Below are positions 1,254 to 17,056 of a stretch of 64,000 bases of DNA, one piece after another. The stretch's first letter is position 1, and the number at the start of each line of letters is the position of its first letter. Made by a program: the position numbers and the translations under genes. The DNA comes from Longimicrobiales bacterium. Its GTDB lineage: Bacteria > Gemmatimonadota > Gemmatimonadetes > Longimicrobiales > Gaopeijiaceae. The notes beneath the pieces are model-generated. The model worked only from the letters and a program-made list of their open reading frames with translations, was not told where the DNA came from and ran no database searches. The stretch covers positions 1,952,001 to 2,016,000 of the forward strand of contig CBDFIQ010000002.1 in assembly GCA_965248195.1 (NCBI GenBank), read 5' to 3'.

Positions 1254-2629
1254 GGTCAAGTCCCGATTTGTGTGTAAAAGCGGAGGAAGCTCCTCGCCTT
1301 CGGCTAGGCTGCTTGGGCGACCTCCTGTTTCTGGAGGAGTGAGAGGTCGAGGTAACGCCGGTCGCCCCAGACGTGTGTGGTCCTGAGTGCGACGGCCGTG
1401 ATGAGCCTGAGGGCGCTGGCCCGGTCCGGGAAGGCGCCGGCGGCCTTGATCCTGCGTTTGATCTCGCCGTGCAGCCGCTCGAGGCTGTTGGTGGTACGCA
1501 GCCGGGGCCAGTGCGCCTCGGGGAACGCGTAGAACTGCGTCGCTGCCCCGAAGCCCCGCTCCAGGACCTCCACGGCCTCGGGCAGCTCCTTCTTCCAGCG
1601 TGCGCCGAACTCGCCCAGGAGCTTCTTCGCCTCGGCGAGTCCGGATGTCTGGAAGATCACCGAGACCTCACGCGCCACGCGCTTGCGTAGGCGGTGGGGG
1701 ACCCTCGCCCCCACATTACGCTGCAGATGGACCGTACACCTCTGACGGCGTGCCTCGGGCAGGAAGCGGCGGACCGCAGCTGCCAGGCCTGCGTGCTCAT
1801 CGGCGATCACGAGCTCGACACCGCCGAGGCCGCGGTCCTGGAGTTGCTCGAGGAGCTCCGACCAGCTCTGCTGCGACTCCTCAGCGCCCAGCGTGACGGC
1901 CAGGAGCCGTCGGTGACCCTCAGGGCCCACTGCATACGCCACGAGCGCACTCACGTTCTCGACTTTGCGGGCCCAGCGGGCGTCCAAGAACGTGGCGTCC
2001 AGGTACAGATAGGGGTGAGGCCCCTCGATCGGCGCACGGCGCAGCCCTTCCACGGCCTCGTCGAGCCGTTTTGCCACACGACTCACCGTCGAGCGCCCAA
2101 CACGCTCGCCCATCAGCGCCTCGGTGACGTCGCCCATCTTGCGCTGTGACACGCCGCTCACATACGCCTCGACCATCATCTCGTCGAGCTCGGGGCTCCT
2201 GCGCTGGTAGCGGCCGATCACGTCGGCCGGCGAACCGTTGTCCCGGCTCCGGGGCATGGCGACCTCGATCTGCCCCAGGCTCGTCAGCAGCCGCCTCAGG
2301 TATGTGCCGTTCCTATGGTCCTTCCGGCTTCCCACCCGCTCGAAGCGGCGTGCACCTACCATGGCCTTCAGCTCCTCTTCCAGCACCATCTCGAGCGTCA
2401 GCCGGATCGCGCCTTGAAACAGCTCGCGCAAATCATCGCGTAGCTCGTCTTGCGTGGCCCGACCGATCTCCACAATCTCTTGCATCGGAAGCTCCTCTCC
2501 GGTTCCGAGCCTGCTCTGCAGACCCGGACTCCCGGGTTCATGTGACAGTGAACAACAACAGAGGAGCTTCCGTTTTTCTTTCCCTCCTGTCCAGCTTATC
2601 CGCTTTTACACAAATCTAGGGACACTACC
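1254..2629 (-). mobile_element. IS256-family insertion sequence, copy 1
   Basis: Imperfect terminal inverted repeats GGTCAAGTCCCGATTTGTGTGTAAAAGCGG / GGTAGTGTCCCTAGATTTGTGTAAAAGCGG; 9-bp target duplication GGATGCGCA at 1245-1253 and 2630-2638. Confidence 0.95.
1304..2485 (-). CDS. IS256-family (Mutator-type DDE) transposase
   Basis: RNGTY, YLYLDAT, LVIADEH, QRCTVHL and RTTNSLERLHGEIKRR motifs. Confidence 0.95.
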   Translation of the reverse strand: MQEIVEIGRATQDELRDDLRELFQGAIRLTLEMVLEEELKAMVGARRFERVGSRKDHRNGTYLRRLLTSLGQIEVAMPRSRDNGSPADVIGRYQRRSPELDEMMVEAYVSGVSQRKMGDVTEALMGERVGRSTVSRVAKRLDEAVEGLRRAPIEGPHPYLYLDATFLDARWARKVENVSALVAYAVGPEGHRRLLAVTLGAEESQQSWSELLEQLQDRGLGGVELVIADEHAGLAAAVRRFLPEARRQRCTVHLQRNVGARVPHRLRKRVAREVSVIFQTSGLAEAKKLLGEFGARWKKELPEAVEVLERGFGAATQFYAFPEAHWPRLRTTNSLERLHGEIKRRIKAAGAFPDRASALRLITAVALRTTHVWGDRRYLDLSLLQKQEVAQAA

Positions 2630-3179
2630 GGATGCGCAGCAGATCGTGTCTCAGGTGGAAGACCGCGGAGGGGAAAACGGGCGTGACCAGATGGCGCCAC
2701 GCCTCCAGTGATCTCACGTGCTGGCCCCGGTCTTTGTCGGCGAGATAACGAGCCAAGCGGGACTGATCGTCGGTGTAGCAGGGATCCAGCGTCACCAGCC
2801 GGCCCGTGGGCTTCAGGCCGCGACGGGCGAGGCTCATGAACTCCCCTGCTTGGTCGTCGTCGAGGTGATGAAGCACGCCCCAGGCGAGAACCAGATCGTA
2901 GTGCGCCTCCTCGGTCATGGTCTCCTCACCGAGGGGGCCGAGCCGGAACGTCGCCCGACCCCCGAAGCGGCTCCGCGCCTCGGCAGAGTACAGATGATGT
3001 GAATCACGGCAAGAAATCGTCTAAGTTCAACCAGGACTGCGCGATCTGCCGCACTTGCCGTTAGACCATATCTAATTCCACCGTACAGAAATGGTGGGAA
3101 AACAGCATCAAACAGCGGGAATCCGGGCCTAGTGGCATGAGCGCACGTGTCGACTTCGATGCAGAACTAATCACGGGTG

Positions 3180-3522
3180 GAACTTTCTCGACCCGGACGG
3201 CCCGGTCCGCCAGGTACACCCGGCCCCCCTGCCGCCCGTGGTACGCCGCGCGCCCGATCACGTCGATGATCTGATCCAGCGCTCCGCCCGCCAGCGCGAA
3301 GACGTTGACCAGCGGGAGCAGGTGTTCGCGGCCGTCGGTGGCCAGCAACTCCCTGAGGCCTGCCTTGTCCGGCTGGGCCCCCTTCTCGTAGCTTTTCCTC
3401 ATCGTGGTGGTCTCCCTGTTGGGGTTTTCTCTGCCTGATTCCCAATCTGGAATCAAGCCCCCGGGAGCCACCACGGTTCTTTTCCCCTCCGGCAAACCTC
3501 CAACTATTCCTGGGACACCCTC
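3180..3522 (-). mobile_element. Remnant of a second, different IS256-like element (one end plus deleted transposase N-terminus)
   Basis: End sequence GAGGGTGTCCCAGGAATAGTTG at 3522; ATG at 3402 gives MRKSYEK...LDQIIDVIGRAA/YHGRQGGRVYLADRAVRVEK, which resembles IS256 transposase N-termini with an internal deletion. Confidence 0.6.
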
Positions 3523-4066
3523 TGCGGACACTGTAGTAACGAGATGACCCGAAGCCCCTATGTGAACTGACTACAGAGATTATCCAATAGGCGTAGGGAG
3601 CGAGCAAGTCTGCCGCAGAGATCGTTGATGTGATCGTAGGGCGAACCGTACGTCCGAATTAAGGTCGCTCGGATCCGCTGAGCCTGCGAACCGGCAGAGT
3701 GCGCAACCAGTTTGGAACGAAGCCGCTGTAGGTCCCGCAAGGGCTCAATGGCTTCGGCAACAACCTCCGAGGGGACGTCCGCCGTCGTGAGAACTTCCTC
3801 AGCACACCGAATGGAACCCCATAGCGCGACCTCTTCCGATGGCCGATGCTTCAGCCTCTTGGCGAAGAACTGCTTCTGCAGCCCTTCGTTGACGATCTTC
3901 GCGAGCTTTCCTATTGCGTCGTCCCAACTCTGATTCGCCTCAGTTAGCGGGAGGTGAAGTCGATTGAGGAGATCAGGTTCGCGCAACTTGAACCCCTCTC
4001 TGCCAACGTACGTGAGACACGGAGCACGCAAAGAATTAGAGTAGGGCGAAGGCAGAGAAAACGAAC

Positions 4067-4516
4067 ATGTTGGGACTGCGAGAGAGAATGGAAGAGAATG
4101 GTAGTGCCCCTGGAATCGGGGAGGCCAAGCGAAGCGCGGCAGCTCCTGCGGACCCGGAGGTAGTAGATAGGCCGCTACGCCGGCGGTTCAGTCCATCGTA
4201 CAAGCTGCGGATCGTCGAAGAAGCGGACCGGTGCACCGAGCCCGGCGAGGTGGGTCAGCTCCTGCGGCGCGAGGGCCTGTACTCGTCGCACCTGACGACG
4301 TGGCGCAAGGCGGCGCATAGCGGGTCGCTGAAGGCCCTGTCGAAGAAACGCGGCCGCAAGCCGGAGCGGAATCCGCTGGATGAGAAGGTACGCAAGCTGG
4401 AGCGGCAAAACGCACGGCTCGAGAATGAGCTCAGGAAGGCACACCTGATCATCGACGTGCAGGGAAAAGTTGCGGGGCTGCTGGGGATAAGCCTCGACGA
4501 CGGGACGAACTCTTGA
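4067..4516 (+). CDS. IS3-family transposase OrfA (HTH)
   Basis: RRRFSPSYKLRIV...LLRREGLYSSHLTTWR plus coiled coil; in-phase slippery heptamer G GGA AAA at 4462-4468 with an open -1 frame into orfB. Confidence 0.9.
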   Translation: MLGLRERMEENGSAPGIGEAKRSAAAPADPEVVDRPLRRRFSPSYKLRIVEEADRCTEPGEVGQLLRREGLYSSHLTTWRKAAHSGSLKALSKKRGRKPERNPLDEKVRKLERQNARLENELRKAHLIIDVQGKVAGLLGISLDDGTNS

Positions 4517-5520
4517 AGGCGGCCGATGAGCTGGCTAAGCACGTCGGTGTAAAACCGGCGTGCGCGGCTCTCGAGGTCTCCCGATCGACGTTCTACCGTC
4601 GTCGAGGCCCATCGACCGGGCAACGGCAGCCCCGCCCGACGCCCGCCCGGGCATTGAGCGAGACGGAACGAGGCGAGGTCTTCGACACGCTGTGTTCGGA
4701 GCGGTTCGTGGACCGCTCACCCGCCGAGGTGGTGGCCACGCTGCTCGACGAAGAGGTCTACCTGTGCAGCGAACGCACGATGTATCGTGTTCTGGCCTCC
4801 GAGGTGCCGGTTCAGGAACGCCGGGCGCAGCGCACCCATCCCGAGTACAAGAAGCCCGAGTTGATGGCCACGGCGCCGAACCAGGTGTGGTCCTGGGATA
4901 TCACGCGGCTACTCGGGCCGAAGAAGTGGAGCTATTACTACCTCTACGTCATCATGGACATCTACAGCCGCTACGTCGTGGGCTGGATGGTGGCGGACCG
5001 GGAGAACTCGGCCCTGGCCGGCCGGTTGATCCAGCAGAGCTGCCTGAAGCATGGCGTCCAGCCCCGGGTCCTGACCCTGCACTCGGATCGGGGAGCTCCA
5101 ATGACGAGCCAATGCACCGCTCAACTTCTCGCTGACCTCGGCGTGACTCGCTCGTTGAGCCGGCCTCAGGTGTCGGATGACAACCCGTTTTCCGAGGCTC
5201 AGTTCAAAACCTTGAAGTACCATCCCTCGTTTCCCGGGCGGTTCGGGGATCAGGGCCAGGCCAAGACGTTGTGTCGATCGTTCTTCCGCTGGTACAATGC
5301 CGAGCACCGCCATGGCGGTATCTCGATGCTAACCCCCGAGCAGGTCCACTTCGGGAACGCCGATCAGGTCATTGCCGGCAGGAAATCCGTGCTCCGCGAA
5401 GCATGGGCCGCTCATCCCGAACGCTTCGTCACAGGTGTGCCGAAGCCCAAACCGCTCCCGGAGGCCGTCTACATCAATCCTCCCATCCCTTCCCTCACCA
5501 CACAGGATATTGCTCTCTAA
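4513..5520 (+). CDS. IS3-family transposase OrfB (rve DDE integrase core)
   Basis: PNQVWSWDIT, LHSDRG and NPFSEAQFKTLK DDE motifs. Confidence 0.93.
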   Translation: MKAADELAKHVGVKPACAALEVSRSTFYRRRGPSTGQRQPRPTPARALSETERGEVFDTLCSERFVDRSPAEVVATLLDEEVYLCSERTMYRVLASEVPVQERRAQRTHPEYKKPELMATAPNQVWSWDITRLLGPKKWSYYYLYVIMDIYSRYVVGWMVADRENSALAGRLIQQSCLKHGVQPRVLTLHSDRGAPMTSQCTAQLLADLGVTRSLSRPQVSDDNPFSEAQFKTLKYHPSFPGRFGDQGQAKTLCRSFFRWYNAEHRHGGISMLTPEQVHFGNADQVIAGRKSVLREAWAAHPERFVTGVPKPKPLPEAVYINPPIPSLTTQDIAL

Positions 5521-6410
5521 TTAATCCCGTAGAGTGTCCCATTGTCGTTGACAGGTTCCGAACCATCCAACACCTCTTGCTTCCAAGTCCCTCGCAGTGT
5601 CCTTGATGTCACGTAGGCGATTCTCTTCACGCAGCCAATCCCCCTCGAAATCGGTATCGTAGGCGCTTTGCGGAATGCCAGCCTGTGGAGGCTCATTAAA
5701 TGACTTCCAGTATACCTGCTCCGAGTGGGGAAGATCCCCAAGGTAGGTCACATAAGTATATATCTGTTGTGCGTTGTTTACCCGATAGACCTTGAGATGC
5801 CATGCATTCCGGCACGATATGGACTGGTCGTCTACAGAATACTTGTCTGAGTCTGCAAGGTATCTGTTGAGGACGTCTGGCTTAAAAAACGTGGGGGAAA
5901 CTTGGTACGGTAAGGACGAAGGAGGATCGAAGTACGACGCAAGGCGATCCGGGTTACAGCTAGCGGGCACCAGCGTGCATTTCGTGTGGTCCAACAGTAT
6001 TCGTGGGTTAGGCCTCCGGCCAGGAGTGCCACTATTGCGCCAATCAGCAACAACGTAGGACTCATATCGTTTAGGTTGCGTTTTCTGTTCGACCAGGGCG
6101 GCACCTAGTTCTTCGGCAGTGTTGCTCGGTAGTAATACTTGGAGCCCGCGAATATAGCTTTGATGTTGAGGCTCAATGTGGGCGCGATAGTGCAGGTTGT
6201 GCTGGCGATCGTTAACCACGTGAGCGCTGCCTACCCAGCCCTCAAAAGCCTTGGTGATGCAGGTCGAGTCGAACATCTGCACGACGGCGGAGTTTGCAGC
6301 AGACATATGGACTTCGACATCTCTCAATTAGCTCCGGCGAGGGCGGCTGGCCACCGTCCTCTCTCGTGGTCAACTGTCAGGTGAATACCGTCTCAGCACA
6401 CACGTCGCCA

Positions 6411-6578
6411 TTCCACGATGCCGGGATCGAGAACGATCTCCGTATCTACGATGAGGGAAACCACGGGTTCTGGCTCCACGTCGACCAGGATCCGGAGCTT
6501 CGAAGCGAGCCGGCACTGGACGCGTGGCAGCGCCTGATGGCGTACCTGGACCGAACCGCGGTAGCCGCCTGGAGATGA
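6411..6578 (+). pseudogene. C-terminal fragment of a dienelactone hydrolase-family protein
   Basis: IYDEGNHGF...ALDAWQRLMAYL matches the catalytic-His and C-terminal helix pattern; no N-terminus present. Confidence 0.6.
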
Positions 6579-6583
6579 CGGGA

Positions 6584-7959
6584 GGTAGTGTCCCTAGATT
6601 TGTGTAAAAACGGATAAGCTGGACAGGAGGGAAAGAAAAACGGAAGCTCCTCTGTTGTTGTTCACTGTCACATGAACCCGGGAGTCCGGGTCTGCAGAGC
6701 AGGCTCGGAACCGGAGAGGAGCTTCCGATGCAAGAGATTGTGGAGATCGGTCGGGCCACGCAAGACGAGCTACGCGATGATTTGCGCGAGCTGTTTCAAG
6801 GCGCGATCCGGCTGACGCTCGAGATGGTGCTGGAAGAGGAGCTGAAGGCCATGGTAGGTGCACGCCGCTTCGAGCGGGTGGGAAGCCGGAAGGACCATAG
6901 GAACGGCACATACCTGAGGCGGCTGCTGACGAGCCTGGGGCAGATCGAGGTCGCCATGCCCCGGAGCCGGGACAACGGTTCGCCGGCCGACGTGATCGGC
7001 CGCTACCAGCGCAGGAGCCCCGAGCTCGACGAGATGATGGTCGAGGCGTATGTGAGCGGCGTGTCACAGCGCAAGATGGGCGACGTCACCGAGGCGCTGA
7101 TGGGCGAGCGTGTTGGGCGCTCGACGGTGAGTCGTGTGGCAAAACGGCTCGACGAGGCCGTGGAAGGGCTGCGCCGTGCGCCGATCGAGGGGCCTCACCC
7201 CTATCTGTACCTGGACGCCACGTTCTTGGACGCCCGCTGGGCCCGCAAAGTCGAGAACGTGAGTGCGCTCGTGGCGTATGCAGTGGGCCCTGAGGGTCAC
7301 CGACGGCTCCTGGCCGTCACGCTGGGCGCTGAGGAGTCGCAGCAGAGCTGGTCGGAGCTCCTCGAGCAACTCCAGGACCGCGGCCTCGGCGGTGTCGAGC
7401 TCGTGATCGCCGATGAGCACGCAGGCCTGGCAGCTGCGGTCCGCCGCTTCCTGCCCGAGGCACGCCGTCAGAGGTGTACGGTCCATCTGCAGCGTAATGT
7501 GGGGGCGAGGGTCCCCCACCGCCTACGCAAGCGCGTGGCGCGTGAGGTCTCGGTGATCTTCCAGACATCCGGACTCGCCGAGGCGAAGAAGCTCCTGGGC
7601 GAGTTCGGCGCACGCTGGAAGAAGGAGCTGCCCGAGGCCGTGGAGGTCCTGGAGCGGGGCTTCGGGGCAGCGACGCAGTTCTACGCGTTCCCCGAGGCGC
7701 ACTGGCCCCGGCTGCGTACCACCAACAGCCTCGAGCGGCTGCACGGCGAGATCAAACGCAGGATCAAGGCCGCCGGCGCCTTCCCGGACCGGGCCAGCGC
7801 CCTCAGGCTCATCACGGCCGTCGCACTCAGGACCACACACGTCTGGGGCGACCGGCGTTACCTCGACCTCTCACTCCTCCAGAAACAGGAGGTCGCCCAA
7901 GCAGCCTAGCCGAAGGCGAGGAGCTTCCTCCGCTTTTACACACAAATCGGGACTTGACC
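6584..7959 (+). mobile_element. IS256-family insertion sequence, copy 2 (inverted relative to copy 1)
   Basis: Same ends and identical transposase as copy 1; flanks ATGACGGGA / CTGAGGCGC are not duplicated. Confidence 0.95.
6728..7909 (+). CDS. IS256-family transposase
   Basis: Protein identical to 1304-2485. Confidence 0.95.
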   Translation: MQEIVEIGRATQDELRDDLRELFQGAIRLTLEMVLEEELKAMVGARRFERVGSRKDHRNGTYLRRLLTSLGQIEVAMPRSRDNGSPADVIGRYQRRSPELDEMMVEAYVSGVSQRKMGDVTEALMGERVGRSTVSRVAKRLDEAVEGLRRAPIEGPHPYLYLDATFLDARWARKVENVSALVAYAVGPEGHRRLLAVTLGAEESQQSWSELLEQLQDRGLGGVELVIADEHAGLAAAVRRFLPEARRQRCTVHLQRNVGARVPHRLRKRVAREVSVIFQTSGLAEAKKLLGEFGARWKKELPEAVEVLERGFGAATQFYAFPEAHWPRLRTTNSLERLHGEIKRRIKAAGAFPDRASALRLITAVALRTTHVWGDRRYLDLSLLQKQEVAQAA

Positions 7960-7967
7960 CTGAGGCG

Positions 7968-9413
7968 CTAGGGTAGCATAGCCCGAAGTACCCTGAGTCT
8001 GCCTCTCACGCGTTTGGTGCCTGTAACGACCGAGCCGTGGGAGGTGGGTTCGGGGTTGTCCACCATGGCCCGAATCTCGTCGGCTTCGAAGATGAGCCGT
8101 CCGAGTTTATGGGCTTCAGCGAGACGGAGTGCTTCGTCCGCGGCTTTCCGAGCACGATCCGCCCGACGGAGAATCAGTTCGTCCCGAGCGCGATCCAGCA
8201 AGAGTTGGGTCCACACCTCAACTTGTATACTGGCACTAGCGGACTTAAGGATCTTTGTCGCTCCCCTGTACGTTTCCACGTCGTTACGTCGGGCGGCCAC
8301 CTGGGCCAACCCGCTCGTGGCCGTAGCTCGGACGTCGATGTCCCTCTGGCCCGAACCCAACACGATCTCATAGGCATCTTCCGCAGCGCCCAGATCACCG
8401 CATTCGAGCAGTACGTTTCCCAGCACGACTAGCGTGCCAAAGCGGTCGACGTGATCTACTGGGTAGGCGTCGTACGCCAACAACCCGAACTTGGCGGCGG
8501 GAGCTAATGACCCCACTTCCTGTTCCACCAGCATCAGCCCGAAGTAAGCCAGCGGAATACCCAGCGCTCCTGGCGGCGCAATTCTGAGGGCTTCTTCGTA
8601 TGTGGTCCGAGCCAGCGGCATGTTTCCCTGCATCCGGTGGACACTCCCCCGTCCGGTGAGGATAGCCGCCGCCAAGCTCTGGTCCGTCAGTTTCCGGGCT
8701 GCCCCTTCCGCGACCTTGTACGCTGCCAACGCATCCTCGAGGCGCCCCAGCCTCCGTAGCGCCCGGGCTTGGTACCATGCCGCGCGCACCCCATTCTCAG
8801 CCAAGCCCATCGCTAGACACGCCGAAGCCGCGACCTCATAGAGATTCAGGGCGCTTTCGTAGTTGCCGGACGCCTCACATTCCTCTGCTTGGGCAAACAG
8901 GGTGCCTGTGGTTTCTCTCTGATCCCACAGCGACGCGTCCTCTGTGTCGATCAATACGCTGATGGCTACGTAGCGCGACTCGTGGAAGAGTTGTCCCACA
9001 TCTCGGCCGAGGTTCAGCTGCCGGACGCCCGAGAGAACCAAGGACCACCGGCGACCATGCTTCGCCGCGATCATGTAAGCGAGACTCTTCCTCGGGCGTG
9101 CCCGCCCGGTGCCGACAGTGCCCTCAAAGGCGGCGGCCAATCCCCGAGCCGCGAGGTCTGCGCCGAACGTCACACGCGGTTCATCCCTGACGGCATCGAC
9201 CACGATATGAGGGAACGGTCCGGCCGATCCATCAATGGGTGACCACACGAGGGCGCAGCGATCCGCGCGTGTAGCTTCTAGGAGTTCGACCAACTGCGGG
9301 ACAAGACGCCCGCGAACGGGGTCCATCGAGTATAGAGCCTGCGCGTCGCGCATACGCCTCTCACGTTCTGGGCCGGGAAGGAAAGTTCGAATATCAATAA
9401 CATCACGCGACAT
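7968..9413 (-). CDS. Tetratricopeptide-repeat protein with an uncharacterised N-terminal domain
   Basis: Repeated TPR-like helices (ARALRRLGRLEDALAAY; GSVHRMQGNMPLARTTYEEAL; LGNVLLECGDLGAAEDAY). Confidence 0.75.
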   Translation of the reverse strand: MSRDVIDIRTFLPGPERERRMRDAQALYSMDPVRGRLVPQLVELLEATRADRCALVWSPIDGSAGPFPHIVVDAVRDEPRVTFGADLAARGLAAAFEGTVGTGRARPRKSLAYMIAAKHGRRWSLVLSGVRQLNLGRDVGQLFHESRYVAISVLIDTEDASLWDQRETTGTLFAQAEECEASGNYESALNLYEVAASACLAMGLAENGVRAAWYQARALRRLGRLEDALAAYKVAEGAARKLTDQSLAAAILTGRGSVHRMQGNMPLARTTYEEALRIAPPGALGIPLAYFGLMLVEQEVGSLAPAAKFGLLAYDAYPVDHVDRFGTLVVLGNVLLECGDLGAAEDAYEIVLGSGQRDIDVRATATSGLAQVAARRNDVETYRGATKILKSASASIQVEVWTQLLLDRARDELILRRADRARKAADEALRLAEAHKLGRLIFEADEIRAMVDNPEPTSHGSVVTGTKRVRGRLRVLRAMLP

Positions 9414-9609
9414 GCATGATCCCGCACGGAGACCCCTCGTCGGTCGGCAATCTAGGGCCGCACGAAAATTACGCTAGTGTCGGTGCGTTTGTAATAATTT
9501 TAGTCGCGGCCCCGTTTCTTGGGCATGGAGTACCGGTCGGCATACAATCGTCGCGGGTCACTTGGTTTCACCGCCCGCTATCCCCACGAGCGGCCAAACG
9601 GAGGACCCC

Positions 9610-9723
9610 ATGATCCGAGCCATTGGATTCTTAGCAGCATTATTCGTGCCGCTCATTTCCGCGGCTCAGGCCGCCGAGATGTTAAGAACAGAGTTGGCCA
9701 AGTGCGCCGTCGTGGACGGTGAA
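9610..9723 (+). pseudogene. N-terminal fragment of a secreted protein (TagO/VasI-like)
   Basis: GGAGG RBS, signal peptide MIRAIGFLAALFVPLISAAQA, then LAKCAVVDGE, after which the sequence stops looking coding. Confidence 0.4.
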
Positions 9724-9970
9724 AGTTCCGGAGCCCACCCGGGGGCAGGACTCCTCCCTCTCCCGGCCTACCCCGCCAACGTCTCGGATTCTTGCCGCAA
9801 GCCGTTCAGCTATCTCCCGATCTTCGGTCCTGGATCGCCCCCAAAATTGCCCAGGTTGGGACGATCTCGGAGGCGGAAATGGACGCCGAAGGAGACCGGA
9901 AAAAGGACCTCTCAGAGAAGACCCGTGAAGAGATCCAGGACGACCTCGACAACAAGAGGCTTTGGTCACC

Positions 9971-10192
9971 CTAGCTCTCGATCACAAACAGGGGATCGCC
10001 CCCCCCGATCTCCTCACCGACAGAGATATAGACCTCTTTGATCGTGCCGCTCGCCGGGGCCATGATAGGCATCTCCATCTTCAAGGCCTCGATGTCGCAC
10101 ATGCGGTCTCTCTCCTCGACTTGGCTCCCCTTTTCGACATGAACCCGGATCACCCTTCCCCTCATGGGGGCCTTCACAATCTGTTCAGCCAT
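9971..10192 (-). CDS. Stand-alone biotin carboxyl carrier protein
   Basis: 73-aa biotinyl fold: APMRG...V..G..V...IEALKME.PI.AP..G.I; biotin-Lys motif variant EALKM. Confidence 0.9.
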   Translation of the reverse strand: MAEQIVKAPMRGRVIRVHVEKGSQVEERDRMCDIEALKMEMPIMAPASGTIKEVYISVGEEIGGGDPLFVIES

Positions 10193-10233
10193 CCCCTCTC
10201 ACACTATAAGCATCACCCGCTAAACGAAGACGC

Positions 10234-11385
10234 CTAGCCTAGAACACTCAAAAAGATCCCAGCGACAACAGCAGAACCTACAACACCAGCCACATTTGGT
10301 CCCATGGCATTCATCAGCAGGAAGTTGCTCGGGTTGGCTTCCTGCCCCATTCGCTGCACTACCCTGGCTGACATTGGCACGGCCGAGACACCACAGGCAC
10401 CTATCATCGGATTGAAGGGTTCTTTGCTAACTAGCTTCATCAGCTTCCCCATAAGCACACCCCCGGCTGTCCCACAAGCAAAGGCGAAAAGACCCAAAGC
10501 CAGAACCATAAGGGTTTCCGGGCGCATTACTAGCTCGGCAGGCATACTTGCTCCGATAGAAAGCATGAGGAGTATAGTGATTGAGTTGATAAAGGCATTC
10601 TGTGCCGTGTCAGAAAGCCTTTCTACTGCACCGCTTACCCGGAGTAAGTTTCCAAACATAAACATTCCCACGATGGGTGCGCTGCGAGGTACCAGCAATA
10701 TGATCAGAATGAGGCATACTATGGGGAACAAGATCTCTTCTGTTTTTGACACCTCGCGTAACTCTGGCTCCATATAGATCTCTCTCTCCCTTTTTGATGT
10801 GAGAGCTCTAATTATGGGAGGTTGAATGATGGCTACCATTGCCATGTAAGAATATGCGGCCACCGCCGTGATCCCCATTATCTCAGGCGCAAGCCGGGAG
10901 GTGACGTAGATCGTTGTGGGACCGTCAGCACCGCCAATGATTGCGATGGCAGCCGCTTCCTCCAATCCAAACTCGGCGATACCAAAGTGCCCCAAAGCCA
11001 AAGCGCCGAGGAAGGCAACAATTATTCCTACTTGTGCCGCTGCCCCAAGCAAAAAGAGCCGCGGACGGGCTATGAGTGGTACGAAGTCCGTCAACGCACC
11101 AAGACCAACGAAGATTAGCAGAGGCAGGACTGTATATCTGAGGAGACCAAATTCAATCAATATTCCCAAGAGACCGGCAGTCCCAATTTCGCCTCCCGCC
11201 TCCTGAGGCTGAACCAAGAGTCCAGTGCCAGGGAGATTAGCCAAGATCAATCCCATCCCGATAGGGAGGAGTTCATAGGGCTCGAAGTCCTTGACAATAG
11301 CGAGATAGATGAAGGTGAGCCCCACACATATTAAGACGACATGCCCCCAGGTAAGGTCGGCAAAGCCGGTTTGAAATCCTAGCAT
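10234..11385 (-). CDS. oadB: Na+-translocating decarboxylase beta subunit
   Basis: FEPYELLPIG, IIGGADGPTTIY, AAYSYMAMV, GVSAVPMSARV and AMGPNVAGVVGSAV motifs. Confidence 0.95.
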   Translation of the reverse strand: MLGFQTGFADLTWGHVVLICVGLTFIYLAIVKDFEPYELLPIGMGLILANLPGTGLLVQPQEAGGEIGTAGLLGILIEFGLLRYTVLPLLIFVGLGALTDFVPLIARPRLFLLGAAAQVGIIVAFLGALALGHFGIAEFGLEEAAAIAIIGGADGPTTIYVTSRLAPEIMGITAVAAYSYMAMVAIIQPPIIRALTSKREREIYMEPELREVSKTEEILFPIVCLILIILLVPRSAPIVGMFMFGNLLRVSGAVERLSDTAQNAFINSITILLMLSIGASMPAELVMRPETLMVLALGLFAFACGTAGGVLMGKLMKLVSKEPFNPMIGACGVSAVPMSARVVQRMGQEANPSNFLLMNAMGPNVAGVVGSAVVAGIFLSVLG

Positions 11386-11402
11386 CTTGTTCCAGTCAAC
11401 TC

Positions 11403-11567
11403 CTAAGTTCGTTCTCTTTCTTGCCCGCCTTCAGCCTTGCTGGCAGCGACTCTGCCAACTATCACCCCGACGAGCCAGATAGCTAGAGCCAGCATGATTA
11501 GGACGGCAAAGACTAGGACAAAGCCAAAGCCACTAATCTGCGCAGCGAGCCCCCAGTCTATTTCCAT
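11403..11567 (-). CDS. oadG: Na+-translocating decarboxylase gamma/delta-type small membrane subunit (54 aa; absent from the ORF track)
   Basis: Translated by hand: MEIDWGLAAQISGFGFVLVFAVLIMLALAIWLVGVIVGRVAASKAEGGQERERT*; single TM helix with an OadG-like GF.LVF.VL..L pattern, lying between the alpha and beta genes. Confidence 0.85.
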   Translation of the reverse strand: MEIDWGLAAQISGFGFVLVFAVLIMLALAIWLVGVIVGRVAASKAEGGQERERT

Positions 11568-11593
11568 ATCTCTAACTCAATAACTCGATCAGG

Positions 11594-13018
11594 TTATGAG
11601 CGGAGGTCGCTCTTTTCCCTGAGGGTCAGAAAGTCCTTGGCCTGCATGGGGTAGAGTATCCCCATGAGGATATCCTCGTCGCTCTTTGCCAGAGGGCCGA
11701 GTTCTTTCACCGCTCTGTCCCAGTCCTCCGGATCGGCGAGGTCCCCTGCCCTTGCCGAGTAATCGGGAGACTTGTCGCCCATTATCTTAGTCACGAGCTC
11801 CTCGCTCACCGGGCCCGGTGGCCGACCGTATTTACCCGCGACATAATCCATGACCTCTTGCGTGATGATTTGGTATCGCTCTCCCATCAGCACGTTGAAT
11901 ACCGCTTGGGAGCCGACGATCTGGCTCGTGGGAGTCAGGAGCGGCGGATAGCCGAGGTCCTTCTCCACATTCGGACTTTCTTTCAGGGCCGCCTCCATCA
12001 GATCCATCCGGCCAGCCTCTTTCAACTGCGCGACCATGTTGGAGATCATCCCGCCGGGCATCTTGTGCTTGAGCACCTCGGCGTTGACACCAGCGTACTT
12101 CGTTGCGTGTTCCGAATACTTCTCCCCGATGTCCCGTGTGATCCTGGTAGGCTCCTCGAGTAGCTTCAGGTCTATGCCCGTGTCGAAGGGTGTGTCCTTG
12201 AGTGCAGCGATCATCGTTTCGGTCGCGGGGTGTGAAGAGCCGAAAGCCAGCGGGCTCAGCACCGTATCGATCATATCCACCCCGGCGAGTAGGGCCATCA
12301 GGTGGCACATGCTGGAGGCCCCGGTCATATCGTGAGTGTGGAGGAGGACCGGCATTTCCTTGGCACGGTCCTTCATGCCCTTGATGATCCTGTAGGCATC
12401 GAAGGGCATGATGATACCCGTTGCGTCCTTCAGCGATAGCCAGTCTGCCCCGATCTCCAACACTTGCTCCGCATACTCCATCCACTTCTCAAGGGTGTGC
12501 ACCGGGCTGATGGTGTAGTTCACCTCCACGTGGGCCTCTCCCCCGAACTCCTTGACCGCCTTGGCGGCCACCTCGACGTTCCGGAAGTCGTTGGTGGCCT
12601 CGAACACCCGGAAGACGGTAATGCCGTTCTTCACCGCCTTCTCGACGAACTTGCGGACGATTCGGTCCGGATAGGGCTTATAGGCGAGGATGTGCTGGCC
12701 CCTCAAGAGCATCTGAAGTTTGGTGTTGGGCATGACCTCCTTGATTCGTTTGAGCCTCTCCCAAGGATCTTCCTTCAGGTATCTCAAGGCGGCGTCGAAG
12801 CTGGCCCCTCCCCATACCTCCACCGCATAGAAGCCACACTTGTCCAGGGCCGCGCAGAGGGGGAGAAGGTCATCCGTGGAAACCCTAGTGGCGAGTTTGC
12901 ATTGCTGGCCATCCCTCGGGGTCAGATCGGTAATCTTGATCCTTCTAGAGCCGATCGGTGCGCTGAGCAGTGTTCGAAGATCTTGATCCAGTCTCTCGAA
13001 GGATTCATTCAGATCCAT
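11594..13018 (-). CDS. Biotin-dependent carboxyltransferase (OadA/PycB superfamily), CfiA-like; no biotinyl domain
   Basis: ITDLTPRDGQQCKLATR, EVWGGA, SLKDATGII, LHTHD, PGGMISNM and PPLLTPTSQIVG motifs; strong GGAGGAGG RBS. Confidence 0.92.
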   Translation of the reverse strand: MDLNESFERLDQDLRTLLSAPIGSRRIKITDLTPRDGQQCKLATRVSTDDLLPLCAALDKCGFYAVEVWGGASFDAALRYLKEDPWERLKRIKEVMPNTKLQMLLRGQHILAYKPYPDRIVRKFVEKAVKNGITVFRVFEATNDFRNVEVAAKAVKEFGGEAHVEVNYTISPVHTLEKWMEYAEQVLEIGADWLSLKDATGIIMPFDAYRIIKGMKDRAKEMPVLLHTHDMTGASSMCHLMALLAGVDMIDTVLSPLAFGSSHPATETMIAALKDTPFDTGIDLKLLEEPTRITRDIGEKYSEHATKYAGVNAEVLKHKMPGGMISNMVAQLKEAGRMDLMEAALKESPNVEKDLGYPPLLTPTSQIVGSQAVFNVLMGERYQIITQEVMDYVAGKYGRPPGPVSEELVTKIMGDKSPDYSARAGDLADPEDWDRAVKELGPLAKSDEDILMGILYPMQAKDFLTLREKSDLRS

Positions 13019-13032
13019 GGGTCGCCTCCTCC

Positions 13033-13473
13033 CTACGCTGACGTGACGGTCCCTTTCAAGGAACCGACTTCGTACTCACAGGTTATGGGGGCCACCCGAC
13101 TCGCCATAACGGCAATGCTGCAGGTGCGGGTCAGCGCTTCGTGAATGGCGTCCCGGACATCCTTGTCGGTGAGGTCTGGCCCTTTCATGCGGAACTTCAG
13201 CATGATCTTCGTATAGACCTTTGGATAATCTGGCCGGCGCTCCCCGTCTGTTTCCACCTCAACATCTTCCACGTGTTTGCCGGCCTGGTGGAGTGCCTCA
13301 TAGGCATGGATTCCCATGCACGCCGCGATAGAGTACATAAGAAGGGCTGGTGGCCTGAATCCCCTGCCTTTCCCACCCACATGCGCGGCGGCGTCAATCG
13401 GCAACTCTAGGTCAAGGTCTTCACCTTTGCCGACAAAATGGAAATCCGTCTTCTGGTTGACTCTTACCTTCAT
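13033..13473 (-). CDS. OsmC/YhfA-family protein
   Basis: GFRPPALLMYSIAACMG and TCSI two-Cys pattern; R.PDYPKVYTKI. Confidence 0.85.
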   Translation of the reverse strand: MKVRVNQKTDFHFVGKGEDLDLELPIDAAAHVGGKGRGFRPPALLMYSIAACMGIHAYEALHQAGKHVEDVEVETDGERRPDYPKVYTKIMLKFRMKGPDLTDKDVRDAIHEALTRTCSIAVMASRVAPITCEYEVGSLKGTVTSA

Positions 13474-13488
13474 GGTCTAACCCTCCCT

Positions 13489-14454
13489 TCACTTAGGAAG
13501 CACCACAGAAAGTGGGGGCTCACCCGTCGCCACACGCCGGATGTTCTCCCACGCAAAACGGGACCGGCGGAACCAGCCCTCGTATCCATGCCCCGCGACA
13601 TGGGGTGAAAGGACGACATTGTCCTGCTGCACGAAAGGATGATCGGCGGGAAAGGGTTCCGTGCAAAAGACATCCAGCCCCGCTCCAGCGATGCGATTCT
13701 CCCTCAAGGCCTCGACCAGGGCCTCCTCGTCCACCGCGGGCCCGCGGCTGGTGTTGAGTAGGACGGTGGTGGGCTTCATCATTCCCAGCGCTTCCCGCCC
13801 GATGATCCCCTCGGTCTCCGGGGTGGCGGGGACATGCAGGCTGATGATGTCTGCCTCCCGCAGTAACTCCTCCAGAGAGACCCGGCGGGCCCCTAGATCT
13901 TTCTCTATCTCGGGGGCGGACACGACGTCGTAGTATATGACCCGGGCCTCGAACGCCGCCAAGCGCCGGGCTACTTTCCGGCCGATGTTCCCCGCCCCAA
14001 CCAGGCCCAGGGTTTTGCCCGCCACCTCAAAAGTGTTGAACCCCGAAATCGGCTCCCGCCACCGTCCCTCCCGCATCGCCCGGTCACACTGGATGAGACG
14101 CTTGTAAAGAGCCAAGAGGAGGGCAACAGTGTGCTCGGCCACCGACCAAGCGTTGGCCCCGCCGTTGGTAGCCACCGGGATACCCAACTCGGCGGTAAGG
14201 CCCAGGTCTATCTTGTCATAGCCGGCGGTCAAGAGTTGGATCAGGCGCAGCGTCTTGGCCGCTCGCAGGAGGTCCTCAGAGATCTGGGCCGGGTGGAGGA
14301 CCAGGAAGTCCGCCTCCCGCATCAAGGGGAGTTTCTCCTCGTCGCTGACACGACGGGGTAGCCAGGTCAGCTCAAACCCCTCGCGAGGCGCCTCCTCCGA
14401 GAAGATCTCCGCCACCCGCTCGCTTTGACCATTGATGAAAAACACCCTGGACAT
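13489..14454 (-). CDS. NAD-dependent D-isomer-specific 2-hydroxyacid dehydrogenase
   Basis: SVAEH, GAGNIG, YYD, NTSRG, LDVFCTEP and SPHVAG catalytic motifs. Confidence 0.93.
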   Translation of the reverse strand: MSRVFFINGQSERVAEIFSEEAPREGFELTWLPRRVSDEEKLPLMREADFLVLHPAQISEDLLRAAKTLRLIQLLTAGYDKIDLGLTAELGIPVATNGGANAWSVAEHTVALLLALYKRLIQCDRAMREGRWREPISGFNTFEVAGKTLGLVGAGNIGRKVARRLAAFEARVIYYDVVSAPEIEKDLGARRVSLEELLREADIISLHVPATPETEGIIGREALGMMKPTTVLLNTSRGPAVDEEALVEALRENRIAGAGLDVFCTEPFPADHPFVQQDNVVLSPHVAGHGYEGWFRRSRFAWENIRRVATGEPPLSVVLPK

Positions 14455-14513
14455 CTTCGTGCCTCCTCGAATCGCCGACCCTTTATGGTTCCTCCCACGA
14501 ATCGGCGCGCCGT

Positions 14514-14577: not shown

Positions 14578-14721
14578 TGTTTCTGGCACCATCACGCTGT
14601 CTGCTCCCGAGGCACTCTTCCGAAGAGCAACCAGAAATTCTGGAAGGACAAGTTCCACCAGAATCGGGCTCGAGACCAACGGAAAGTGGATGCTCTCCGC
14701 GAATCTGGCTTCCGCGTCATG
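14578..14721 (+). pseudogene. vsr: Internal fragment of very-short-patch repair endonuclease
   Basis: Hand translation CFWHHHAVCSRGTLPKSNQKFWKDKFHQNRARDQRKVDALRESGFRVM matches the Vsr signature; both ends missing. Confidence 0.8.
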
Positions 14722-14730
14722 GGGTCCACT

Positions 14731-14847
14731 TCAGGTCACGCCCAGCTCCGTTCGGCGAAGCAGTTGAGCGTTGAGCTCTACGATGATCGTGCTGAGAGAC
14801 ATGAGTACCGCCCCTAGGGCCGGGTGTAACAGCACGCCCCAGGCCAA
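14731..14847 (-). pseudogene. C-terminal fragment of a heavy-metal P1B-type ATPase (CopB-like)
   Basis: [32 protein letters not shown] matches the last TM helix motif (MSLSTI.V..NA.LL). Confidence 0.75.
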
Positions 14848-14997
14848 TCGCTCTAAGGGTTTCGGAGTTCGTAGGGTGAGGCACTGTTCGACCGGATACA
14901 TGAGCGGTCGTTGAGCCACAGCAAGCCTCGCCTCGGCTGCCGCTATCCTCGCCTTCGTAACCTCGTGTCGGGCACGGGCCGTCGAGGTCCTTGCGAA

Positions 14998-16011
14998 TCA
15001 CCCCAGCGCCCGCACCAGGGCATCGCTGAACTCGACCGTCGAGGCCTGGCCCCCCATGTCCCTCGTCCTTACCTCGCCCGCGCGAACCACGTTGTCGAGC
15101 GCCGCCCGGATGCGGGCGCCCACGTCGGGCTGACCGACATGCTCGAGAAGCAGACACGCCGACAGGAGGAGTCCAGTCGGGTTGGCGATCCCCTGCCCCG
15201 CGATATCCGGAGCCGACCCGTGGACCGCCTCGAACACGGCCGCGTCCTCTCCGATGTTGCCGGCCGGAGCGAACCCGAGACCACCTACGAGCCCCGCCAT
15301 CAGGTCGCTCAGAATGTCCCCTAACATGTTCTCCATCACGAGAACGTCGAACTGGCGCGGCTCCAGGACAAGAGCCATGGCGGTCGCGTCGATGATGCGG
15401 TCCTCCCATGCGATGTCCGGATACTCCGGGGCCATCTCACGGCCTACGTCGAGAAAAAGCCCCTGCGTGTACTTCAGGATATTGGCTTTATGCGCCAGGG
15501 TGACTCTCTTGCGGCCATTCGCGCGCGCGTACTCGAAGGCGTATCGGACGATCCGCTCGGCGCCGAAACGAGTCACGATCATTACGGATTCTGCGGCAGC
15601 CCGCGGGTCGCCCTCCAAGCCGATGTAGTGCTCGACGCCGACGTACAGACCCTCGGTGTTCTCCCGAATCAACACCAGATCGATGTCTTCGTAGCGCCCG
15701 CCCGGAACGATGGTTCGCACGGGTCGGACGTTGGCGTAGAGGTCGAACTCCTTCCGGAGCGCGACGTTGATGGAGCGGAAGCCCGAGCCCATGGGCGTGG
15801 TGAGCGGGCCTTTGAGCGACAACCCGTTGCGGCGGATCGAGTCGAGGGTGGCGTCCGGAAGCGGCGTATTGACTCGCTCGAGCGCCTCCAGGCCAGCCAC
15901 CTGCATATCGTACTCGAGGTCCGCACCCGACGCCCGGAGAACACTCAGCGTCGCGTCGGTGACTTCTGGACCGATCCCGTCTCCCGGGATCACGGTGACG
16001 GTTTTGGTCAT
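14998..16011 (-). CDS. idh: Isocitrate/isopropylmalate dehydrogenase family, probably NAD-dependent isocitrate dehydrogenase
   Basis: IPGDGIGPEV, KGPLTTP..SGFRSINVALR, IRENTEG, HKANILK, GDILSD and FEAVHGSAPDIAG motifs. Confidence 0.85.
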   Translation of the reverse strand: MTKTVTVIPGDGIGPEVTDATLSVLRASGADLEYDMQVAGLEALERVNTPLPDATLDSIRRNGLSLKGPLTTPMGSGFRSINVALRKEFDLYANVRPVRTIVPGGRYEDIDLVLIRENTEGLYVGVEHYIGLEGDPRAAAESVMIVTRFGAERIVRYAFEYARANGRKRVTLAHKANILKYTQGLFLDVGREMAPEYPDIAWEDRIIDATAMALVLEPRQFDVLVMENMLGDILSDLMAGLVGGLGFAPAGNIGEDAAVFEAVHGSAPDIAGQGIANPTGLLLSACLLLEHVGQPDVGARIRAALDNVVRAGEVRTRDMGGQASTVEFSDALVRALG

Positions 16012-16479: not shown

Positions 16480-16640
16480 TGGAGGCGGCGGGAGTGACCT
16501 GCGGTCGGCGCTGCGCGCCGATCCTCAGTCGGCTCGTCGGTCGACGAGAGGATGTTCGAGACCGTAATCCCTCCTCGGCTCGAACCTCGCTTGCCGTCCT
16601 CGGCGGAGCCGAGGCCGGGCGGGTTCGACTCCCGCCGCCT
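16480..16640. repeat. tmRNA-linked palindromic repeat element
   Basis: 16-bp direct copy (16480-16495) and 22-bp inverted copy (16619-16640) of the tmRNA 3' end, flanking several hairpins. Confidence 0.8.
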
Positions 16641-16658
16641 AAACACCCCGAACGCATT

Positions 16659-16694
16659 AACAGAAAGGACCGAACCATCAACATGGTCCGGTCC
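16659..16694 (-). terminator. Intrinsic terminator after tmRNA
   Basis: GGACCGGACCAT-GTTG-ATGGTTCGGTCC hairpin followed by TTTCTGTT. Confidence 0.75.
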
Positions 16695-16701
16695 CTCTGG
16701 A

Positions 16702-17056
16702 TGGAGGCGGCGGGAGTCGAACCCGCGTCCGCAAATGGATCCTACAGAGCCTCTACGTGCGTAGCGTCACTCAATGTTTCGCCCGGGGCGGCGAGCGAGC
16801 AACCGACCCCCAAGCTAGCTACCTGAACATCTCATCTCTGGCCCGGGCAGCACCGGCCAGCGACCAGCCCGACTCATCGACGTCTCGGAGACCCGCCTCG
16901 GGCAGGCAGATCAGGAAACGGACTACGAACCGAAGTTACGCAGCCAATGCCAGTTCATTGTTGGCAATTAAGGTTTTCCCAGGGGTTTTACGAGGTCCCG
17001 GGAACCTCGGCACGCTACTCCATATTCACCAAACGCGTCGAAGCCGTGACGCCCCC
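16702..17056 (-). ncRNA. ssrA: tmRNA
   Basis: 5' GGGGGCGTCACGGCTTCGAC; 3' GCGGGTTCGACTCCCGCCGCCTCCA; tag reading frame ANNELALAA* at 16965-16936; 3' CCA not encoded. Confidence 0.97.

Follow-up and report, generated by a model that had tools for sequence, protein, structure and literature searches.

The window, i.e. the whole stretch of 64,000 nucleotides analysed here, carries on its reverse strand six close-packed genes in the order dehydrogenase, OsmC-like protein, carboxyltransferase, gamma subunit, beta subunit and biotin carrier. The spacing among them is 14-41 nt, versus a gap of 543 nt upstream of the dehydrogenase gene, and this fits the initial annotation, in which the dehydrogenase gene was the first gene of an operon. 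The 5' boundary is not universal, because in the related metagenome loci L082 and L086 an IDH gene lies ahead of the dehydrogenase gene in the same direction, and also here an IDH-family gene is found on the same strand beyond the gap of 543 nt. In the direction of reading, the features are:

16702..17056, minus strand: tmRNA, of whose 3' end 16 nt recur at 16480-16495
14998..16011, minus strand: upstream IDH-family gene, no constant component of the module, PRK08997-like (457 versus a cut-off of 510) and by residue rules presumably of the NAD type
14462..14468, minus strand: ribosome-binding site GAGGAGG of the dehydrogenase gene, predicted from sequence, 7 nt ahead of the ATG
13489..14454, minus strand: D-2-hydroxyacid dehydrogenase gene of a distinct clade, 321 aa, ATG start, open reading frame; predicted NAD-dependent, non-decarboxylating isocitrate/oxalosuccinate oxidoreductase
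13033..13473, minus strand: OsmC-like protein (PF02566), conserved beside the carboxyltransferase of the 2-oxoglutarate carboxylase (OGC) type here and in Aquificota
11594..13018, minus strand: carboxyltransferase without biotin domain, of the OGC large-subunit (CfiA) type by motif, clade and homology
11403..11567, minus strand: gamma subunit of a Na+-decarboxylase, 54 aa (PF04277 30.5 bits, cut-off 27)
10234..11385, minus strand: beta subunit (carboxybiotin decarboxylase, Na+ pump; TIGR01109 480 versus 191)
9971..10192, minus strand: free biotin carrier, 73 aa, with Lys38 within EALKM

The beta subunit scores above its cut-off, and its residues D154, S334 and N364 align with the Na+-site residues D203, S382 and N412 of the Salmonella structure 6IVA. 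The gamma subunit and the carrier are encoded beside it, and the EALKM of the carrier is taken by us as a variant of the canonical biotin motif EAMKM. Na+-coupled decarboxylation and transport by the beta and gamma subunits can be predicted from these features. An ATP-dependent biotin carboxylase (CfiB) is not encoded in the operon, and its best matches in the host genome (43-52%) lie elsewhere. A promoter scan gave 2 sites versus 2.3 expected, none of them ahead of the dehydrogenase gene, and terminator-like sites number 11 versus 5 expected. Contigs from RNA libraries, obtained in 4 runs that belong to 4 studies, lie on parts of 9966-14476 and leave 9000-9800 and 14607-14873 uncovered; as such contigs show no strand, level or single transcript, may include DNA, and may come from relatives that lack the flanks, they are not counted as expression. 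Between the IDH-like gene and the operon there is a 62-codon remnant (14731-14919) without Pfam match, which we take to resemble the C-terminus of a heavy-metal P-type ATPase.

The operon sits between IS elements and the tmRNA with its partial 3' repeat. On the one side, duplicated IS elements with transposases of the Mutator family and the rve type are found (1304-7909), and on the other side the tmRNA is found together with incomplete repeats of its 3' end, direct as well as inverted (16480-17056), of which the 16-nt copy suggests an island anchored at the tmRNA. The GC3 of the beta and gamma genes is 0.55 versus 0.67-0.78 for the remaining operon, and in Terriglobia the beta subunit is 55-59% identical versus 92-93% for the dehydrogenase and the carboxyltransferase, so that an exchange of the energy module, with the core remaining together, is likely.

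The dehydrogenase and its clade

The protein belongs to the D-2-hydroxyacid dehydrogenases (PF02826 216 bits, PF00389 62 bits), a family in which the substrate is unreadable from sequence. In place are the triad R237, E266 and H285, the backbone pair A77-G78, G153-x-G155-x-x-G158 and Y174-Y175-D176. The triad and D176 are conserved in 120 of the 120 homologues listed, and the initial annotation was thus right about the intact Arg/Glu/His triad as well as about the NAD-type Asp in YYD. Such a triad and an NAD-selecting Asp are described for the family in PMC6303947, and a preference for NAD(H) is predicted from D176. The AlphaFold model (pLDDT 90) compares with glyoxylate reductases, phosphoglycerate dehydrogenases and McyI at a TM of about 0.8 and 25-36% identity. 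Searches against solved structures, by sequence as well as by structure, gave generic family matches only and indicated no substrate, and the Pfam search gave no match to PF00180, the IDH-family fold.

As the top structure and HMM matches (33-41%) are glyoxylate reductases and phosphoglycerate dehydrogenases, the gene might encode a housekeeping glyoxylate/hydroxypyruvate reductase that lies upstream of the other genes by chance. The nearest solved structures, archaeal glyoxylate/hydroxypyruvate reductases and D-3-phosphoglycerate dehydrogenases (2DBQ, 5AOV, 1WWK), indeed have the same fold and triad, but the identity is 33-36%, residues typical of the clade are missing or rare there, and all 23 matched NCBIfam families stay under their cut-offs, the best being glyoxylate reductase with 239 versus 455; SerA, GhrA/B, D-LDH, FDH and PdxB are among the named equivalogs that fall below the curated limits. 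Also the linkage described below, which extends over at least four phyla, argues against a chance neighbour, and such a housekeeping role is, together with the homoisocitrate or 3-alkylmalate enzyme considered further below, very improbable.

The residues that the clade has for its own are H54-P55, W103, H289, Y291 and F300-W302, which are absent or rare among 20 outgroup proteins, the outgroup being relatives of 46-52% identity that include the unpublished G726. The polar residue H54 is found in 119 of 120 clade homologues and 0 of 14 outgroup proteins, H289 in 116 of 120 and 0 of 17, and R297 in 120 of 120 and 6 of 20. These three could serve to bind extra carboxylates, and R296 is a further candidate ligand.

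The clade is rare, with 3 of 201 genomes in the order of the host and 1 of 301 in Dehalococcoidia; in the phylum of G005 it occurs at an identity of at least 72% in 3 of 251 genomes (with 9 more at 47-52%), and in the phylum to which G761 belongs the count is 2 of 301. These broad samples show rarity and not co-occurrence. A 95%-complete genome from the genus of the host contains no clade member, no beta subunit and no IDH of the upstream type.

Linkage to an OGC-type carboxyltransferase

The carboxyltransferase of the window has relatives of 92-98% identity in Gemmatimonadota, Terriglobia and one planctomycete, of 68-80% in Binatia, Rokubacteria and Chloroflexota, and of 63-69% in Aquificota and Acidulodesulfobacterium. 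The Hydrogenobacter copy (L059) is 65% identical and adjoins a biotin carboxylase that matches the solved OGC small subunit 7KCT with 956 bits, which is why the L059 carboxyltransferase is regarded as the large subunit of OGC; the CfiA orthology thus rests on adjacency to the 7KCT match and not on the sequence of an assayed CfiA. The motif RDGQQCKLATRV is common to both carboxyltransferases, whereas pyruvate/oxaloacetate enzymes have RDAHQSLxATR. In a quick tree, of the kind also used for the dehydrogenase, both belong to a clade of 56 rows apart from two pyruvate-type outgroups (SH-aLRT 99; 31 of the 89 rows, all Aquificota-type, were thinned out beforehand). The protein also remains below the OadA cut-offs, with 568 versus 756 for TIGR01108, as measured for a protein that has no biotin domain, and 529 versus 718 for PRK12331. 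By its sequence, it groups with the Aquificota 2-oxoglutarate carboxylase and not with the oxaloacetate enzymes. OGC converts 2-oxoglutarate to oxalosuccinate, as stated in PMC13147460, and for a carboxyltransferase of the OGC type oxalosuccinate would therefore be the expected keto acid of the operon.

One could also think of an ordinary oxaloacetate decarboxylase, with the dehydrogenase as a D-malate/oxaloacetate oxidoreductase like McyI. In PDB and HMM searches, the carboxyltransferase matches pyruvate carboxylase B and OadA best, one OGC carboxylates pyruvate as well (PMC12183294), and the 48% relatives of the dehydrogenase in L105 and L106 adjoin malate-racemase-like genes, which are below cut-off. 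However, these racemase-neighboured relatives belong to the outgroup, motif and clade are those of OGC, a separate PycB/OadA-type gene (43-44%) is present near ATP-type clusters (L091, L149), and malate conversion to pyruvate and CO2 yields just 5 kJ/mol. An oxaloacetate pump is thus unlikely.

The metagenome search that started from the dehydrogenase returned 34 loci, 4 of which are contig-end fragments. With near-full-length relatives of at least 72% identity, the OsmC-like gene comes next in 19 of 19 loci, and downstream of it there is a carboxyltransferase in 15, a biotin carboxylase and then the contig end in 2, and an earlier end in 2. With relatives of 54-69%, OsmC is in view in 0 of 6 loci (two end within 400 nt), with those of 48% or less in 0 of 5, and the 6 regions fetched for relatives of 46-52% have no TCA, OsmC or carboxyltransferase neighbour. 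There are fewer independent lineages than loci, as several loci are near-identical (L019/L084/L085, L090/L092/L141, L002/L083/L140), and the linkage spans at least four phyla, namely Gemmatimonadota, Acidobacteriota, the Rokubacteria phylum and Chloroflexota. Among the 79 loci found from the carboxyltransferase, 9 have the dehydrogenase and OsmC ahead and 2 start inside OsmC, 17 are Binatia-type loci without dehydrogenase or OsmC, and 51 are Aquificota-type loci without a dehydrogenase clade member, with IDH in view in 25 and an OsmC-like gene in 38 of the 51. The clade is also absent from all 5 Binatia-type genomes searched (best identity 44%; one of them, G009, is unpublished). At high identity, the dehydrogenase is always accompanied by the carboxyltransferase where the contig allows the view, and the reverse is not true. 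The conserved linkage to the carboxyltransferase, on which the proposal of the initial annotation had been made to depend, is thus found (19 of 19 with OsmC next, 15 with the carboxyltransferase).

The OsmC-like gene, whose product has two cysteines, adjoins the OGC-type carboxyltransferase in Aquificota, in Dehalococcoidia and in all pump loci in which that side is visible, and it is not found beside the orphan carboxyltransferases of Binatia. Possibly it encodes an unrecognised OGC accessory protein. In the loci L006-L016 and L020-L025, from Binatia and similar bacteria, an OGC-type carboxyltransferase (74-79%) stands alone, without carrier, OsmC or dehydrogenase nearby. In L097 (7001-10456), the dehydrogenase, OsmC, carboxyltransferase and carrier genes are surrounded by a TCA cluster, and the visible part shows no beta subunit and no biotin carboxylase.

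Gene swap in TCA clusters and the substrate

In Aquificota-type loci, the gene order is ICDH-OsmC-biotin carboxylase-carboxyltransferase (for icd/cfiB/cfiA of A. aeolicus see PMC10052474), and the dehydrogenase therefore occupies the position that the known oxalosuccinate reductase has there. Dehalococcoidia show the order OGOR-aconitase-dehydrogenase-OsmC-biotin carboxylase-carboxyltransferase-MDH-fumarase (L027, L028, L089, L091, L093 and L095, to contig limits). The genome G003 has these four central genes between OGOR-aconitase and MDH-fumarase, whereas relatives of the same family without the clade have OGOR-aconitase-IDH-MDH-fumarase (G270) or OGOR-aconitase-IDH-MDH (G785), with an aconitase 85-87% and an MDH 66% identical to those of a module carrier. 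In the sample of this family (43 genomes, 66 IDH-family matches, 30 loci fetched), 22 of the 30 loci have MDH or aconitase as a neighbour, and these come from 22 genomes that lack the clade. In the module carriers, IDH was found in 0 of 4 incomplete genomes: G001, G002 and G775 gave no match, and G003 has only two leuB in leucine operons; monomeric IDH (PF03971) is absent from G001-G003. This absence is soft, as the carriers are incomplete and related MAGs, whereas the positional swap is independent of genome completeness. Four genes replace IDH, and as the dehydrogenase is the only one among them with a nicotinamide redox site, it would do the redox job of IDH.

Clade members of 59-66% identity are encoded after an aconitase, before an RraA/LigK-like aldolase-decarboxylase and YbhJ-type hydratases, or by a tricarboxylate receptor; aconitase and RraA/LigK-like neighbours occur in L100 and L102, and TctC in L099. 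At 54%, G905 and L104 have none of the tested TCA neighbours and match none of the settings described so far. The clusters of aconitase, dehydrogenase, RraA/LigK-like and YbhJ hydratase genes (L100 158-2629, L102 5018-13575, L099 4849-10768, one with TctC) are candidates for a soluble route from isocitrate via oxalosuccinate to 2-oxoglutarate in tricarboxylate catabolism. The G003-type cluster (L028 168-15566, L148, L149) combines a PycB/OadA-type gene, OGOR, aconitase, the ATP-type OGC, MDH, fumarase and Frd/Sdh, with citrate synthase elsewhere in the G003 genome and no IDH found there, and is a candidate for a reversed oxidative TCA cycle. In Terriglobia-type loci (L004 5954-6266 and 12297-13670; L082 1556-5095), aconitase and IDH remnants lie just upstream of the dehydrogenase gene and a PrpF-like isomerase gene is near, which hints at aconitate use and at an older operon of aconitase, IDH and the module.

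Natural isocitrate is (2R,3S) and thus a 3-substituted D-malate. The module has genes of TCA-type aconitases, of MDH, of fumarase and of a 2-oxoacid:ferredoxin oxidoreductase as neighbours, with the leucine genes at other places, which is why isocitrate is favoured over homoisocitrate and alkylmalates; the aconitases are of the TCA and not of the LeuC/homoaconitase type. Homoisocitrate and isopropylmalate have been set aside on these neighbourhood grounds only. From the three substrates that the initial annotation had considered for conversion to a beta-keto acid, isocitrate has gained by the TCA neighbours, while homoisocitrate and 3-alkylmalates are disfavoured. A precedent within the same family and fold is McyI, a 3-methylmalate/malate dehydrogenase of microcystin biosynthesis, which forms a 3-substituted oxaloacetate from a 3-substituted D-malate without decarboxylation and has been found with citrate bound in the substrate site (PMC11977255). 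It differs in that it is about 32% identical, prefers NADP, acts in secondary metabolism and has no carboxyltransferase partner.

The dehydrogenase thus likely serves as isocitrate/oxalosuccinate oxidoreductase, with a fold that is not related to that of IDH. It would interconvert (2R,3S)-isocitrate and oxalosuccinate without CO2 release as a fixed partner of the OGC-type carboxyltransferase, and together the two would split the IDH reaction in two. The carboxyltransferase that stands alone in 17 of 79 loci, all Binatia-type, counts against this explanation, and so do L097, G905 and L104 with the gene contexts given above. Alternatively, the dehydrogenase might act on D-2-hydroxyglutarate and 2-oxoglutarate and in this way supply or remove the C5 partner of the carboxyltransferase, since many family members, including McyI, reduce 2-oxoglutarate. 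Also H54 aligns with an Arg that lies in the corresponding loop of phosphoglycerate dehydrogenases and that we assume to bind the distal anion. Against it, the neighbours are aconitases and TctC, and no IDH is found in the G003-type clusters, so that no other enzyme would reduce oxalosuccinate there and the link from aconitase to OGC would be broken; a 2-hydroxyglutarate enzyme is hence improbable.

The module has its closest known counterpart in the OGC (CfiAB) with the non-decarboxylating ICDH of Hydrogenobacter thermophilus and other Aquificota, which is alike in carboxyltransferase clade and motif, OsmC-like neighbour, dehydrogenase slot and predicted oxalosuccinate route. In contrast to that system, the redox partner here is a PF02826 dehydrogenase and not one of the IDH family PF00180, there is no biotin carboxylase, the carrier is separate, and beta and gamma subunits stand in place of ATP. 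By this analogy, the dehydrogenase likely works like the Aquificota oxalosuccinate reductase without being a member of its family. In Dehalococcoidia, the same trio would act together with an ATP-dependent biotin carboxylase, and this pairing with an ATP-driven carboxylase means that the dehydrogenase would have to reduce oxalosuccinate there.

Direction, energetics and significance

In the forward direction, the free biotin carrier would receive the beta-carboxyl group of oxalosuccinate through the carboxyltransferase, and the beta and gamma subunits would release CO2 while exporting Na+. With OadABG and the four described pumps, the operon has in common a beta subunit with Na+ site, a gamma subunit, a carboxyltransferase family of the TIM-barrel type and a biotin carrier, but it differs from them in the OGC-type carboxyltransferase, the free carrier, the short gamma subunit, the dedicated upstream dehydrogenase and the predicted C6 tricarboxylic keto acid substrate.

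According to a table in PMC13147460, the oxidation of isocitrate to oxalosuccinate takes up 15.7 kJ/mol; the IDH reaction as a whole releases 11.7 kJ/mol at 1 mM, and the decarboxylation alone 27.4. On a grid of 27 points with assumed concentrations, the forward whole reaction amounts to -11 to -40 kJ/mol, and the computed oxalosuccinate level is about 1-18 micromolar. OAD moves two Na+ and takes a proton from the cytoplasm (preprint 10.64898/2026.06.08.730933). Two Na+ cost 46 kJ/mol in seawater by the values of PMC13147460, 34 with a weaker gradient and 19 at low salt, and are affordable at 0, 4 and 21 of the 27 points, respectively; one Na+ at 23 kJ/mol is affordable at 17. Since a whole-reaction yield of 11-40 kJ/mol faces 46 kJ/mol for two seawater Na+, Na+-driven carboxylation is a serious rival to pumping, and forward pumping in seawater would call for an accumulation of isocitrate behind citrate synthase, whose reaction is strongly downhill, or else for slip or a weak gradient. 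A citrate synthase is present in the host, which speaks against the carboxylating direction there.

In that reverse operation, the chemistry would be the same, with Na+ influx via the beta and gamma subunits driving 2-oxoglutarate carboxylation and the dehydrogenase trapping oxalosuccinate as isocitrate with NADH, in the manner of an ATP-free OGC. The 46 kJ/mol of two seawater Na+ exceed every forward grid point, a chemical proton on the cytoplasmic side removes the proton rebate (same preprint), and oxalosuccinate reduction is downhill by 15.7 kJ/mol. Moreover, the nearest characterised carboxyltransferase is that of a carboxylase, OAD is reversible and has been proposed to carboxylate in marine autotrophs (PMC13147460), and an ordinary IDH lies in or near most pump clusters. 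Together with an NADP-linked IDH, the reverse reaction would bring electrons from NADH to NADPH, or it would push a reversed TCA cycle. However, all 5 pump genomes have the membrane transhydrogenase PntB and just 1 of the 5 has a full isocitrate lyase, the forward direction is open at low salt at the 21 points mentioned, and the described pumps have been studied as decarboxylases. Reverse operation would take a sizeable minor share of what is assigned to the isocitrate/oxalosuccinate chemistry and is possible.

The host has no full isocitrate lyase and no close match to citryl-CoA synthetase, and isocitrate made reductively would therefore have no obvious sink. It keeps two ordinary IDH-family genes besides leuB, and their products could short-circuit the pump. 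The c subunit of its ATP synthase has no Na+ motif and is thus presumably H+-type, and NQR or Rnf are not found above cut-off in the host; the H+-type ATP synthase, the lack of NQR/Rnf and the two other IDH-family genes count against a large role of forward pumping. Oxalosuccinate itself is labile (PMC12183294). Given the chemistry, we lean modestly towards forward pumping in the host. The proposal of the initial annotation that the IDH reaction is split in order to store decarboxylation energy as Na+ motive force is thus supported by OGC type, linkage and gene swap as regards the split, while the direction does not follow from these, and the energy for two Na+ is marginal.

Four substrates of Na+-pumping decarboxylases, oxaloacetate, malonate, methylmalonyl-CoA and glutaconyl-CoA, are given in listings of 2020 and June 2026 (PMC7274780; 10.64898/2026.06.08.730933). 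A literature search over titles and abstract starts, with most subscription journals outside its coverage, found nothing on an oxalosuccinate-decarboxylating Na+ pump, and within the same coverage nothing on a D-2-hydroxyacid dehydrogenase that acts on isocitrate or oxalosuccinate. If the reading is true, oxalosuccinate would be a fifth substrate of this pump type and one within the citric acid cycle, isocitrate would be oxidised by an enzyme whose fold has no relation to that of IDH, and genomes that are read as IDH-less or as having a 'pyruvate carboxylase' or 'oxaloacetate decarboxylase' would have to be interpreted anew. Designed CO2-fixation cycles would benefit from a non-decarboxylating oxalosuccinate reductase and from an ATP-free carboxylase; the reductase employed in such cycles to date doubles as an ordinary IDH (PMC12183294).

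It appears moderately probable that a mobile three-gene core, consisting of the non-IDH oxidoreductase, the OsmC-like protein and the OGC-type carboxyltransferase, is combined with interchangeable energy modules, either a Na+ pump or an ATP carboxylase. If this is true, the core with the Na+ pump would constitute, besides the fifth decarboxylase-pump substrate, an ion-coupled reversible IDH step, the core with the ATP carboxylase would permit an IDH-free reversed cycle in Dehalococcoidia, and the core with the Na+ pump running backwards in seawater would be an ATP-free, Na+-driven, CO2-fixing 2-oxoglutarate carboxylase.
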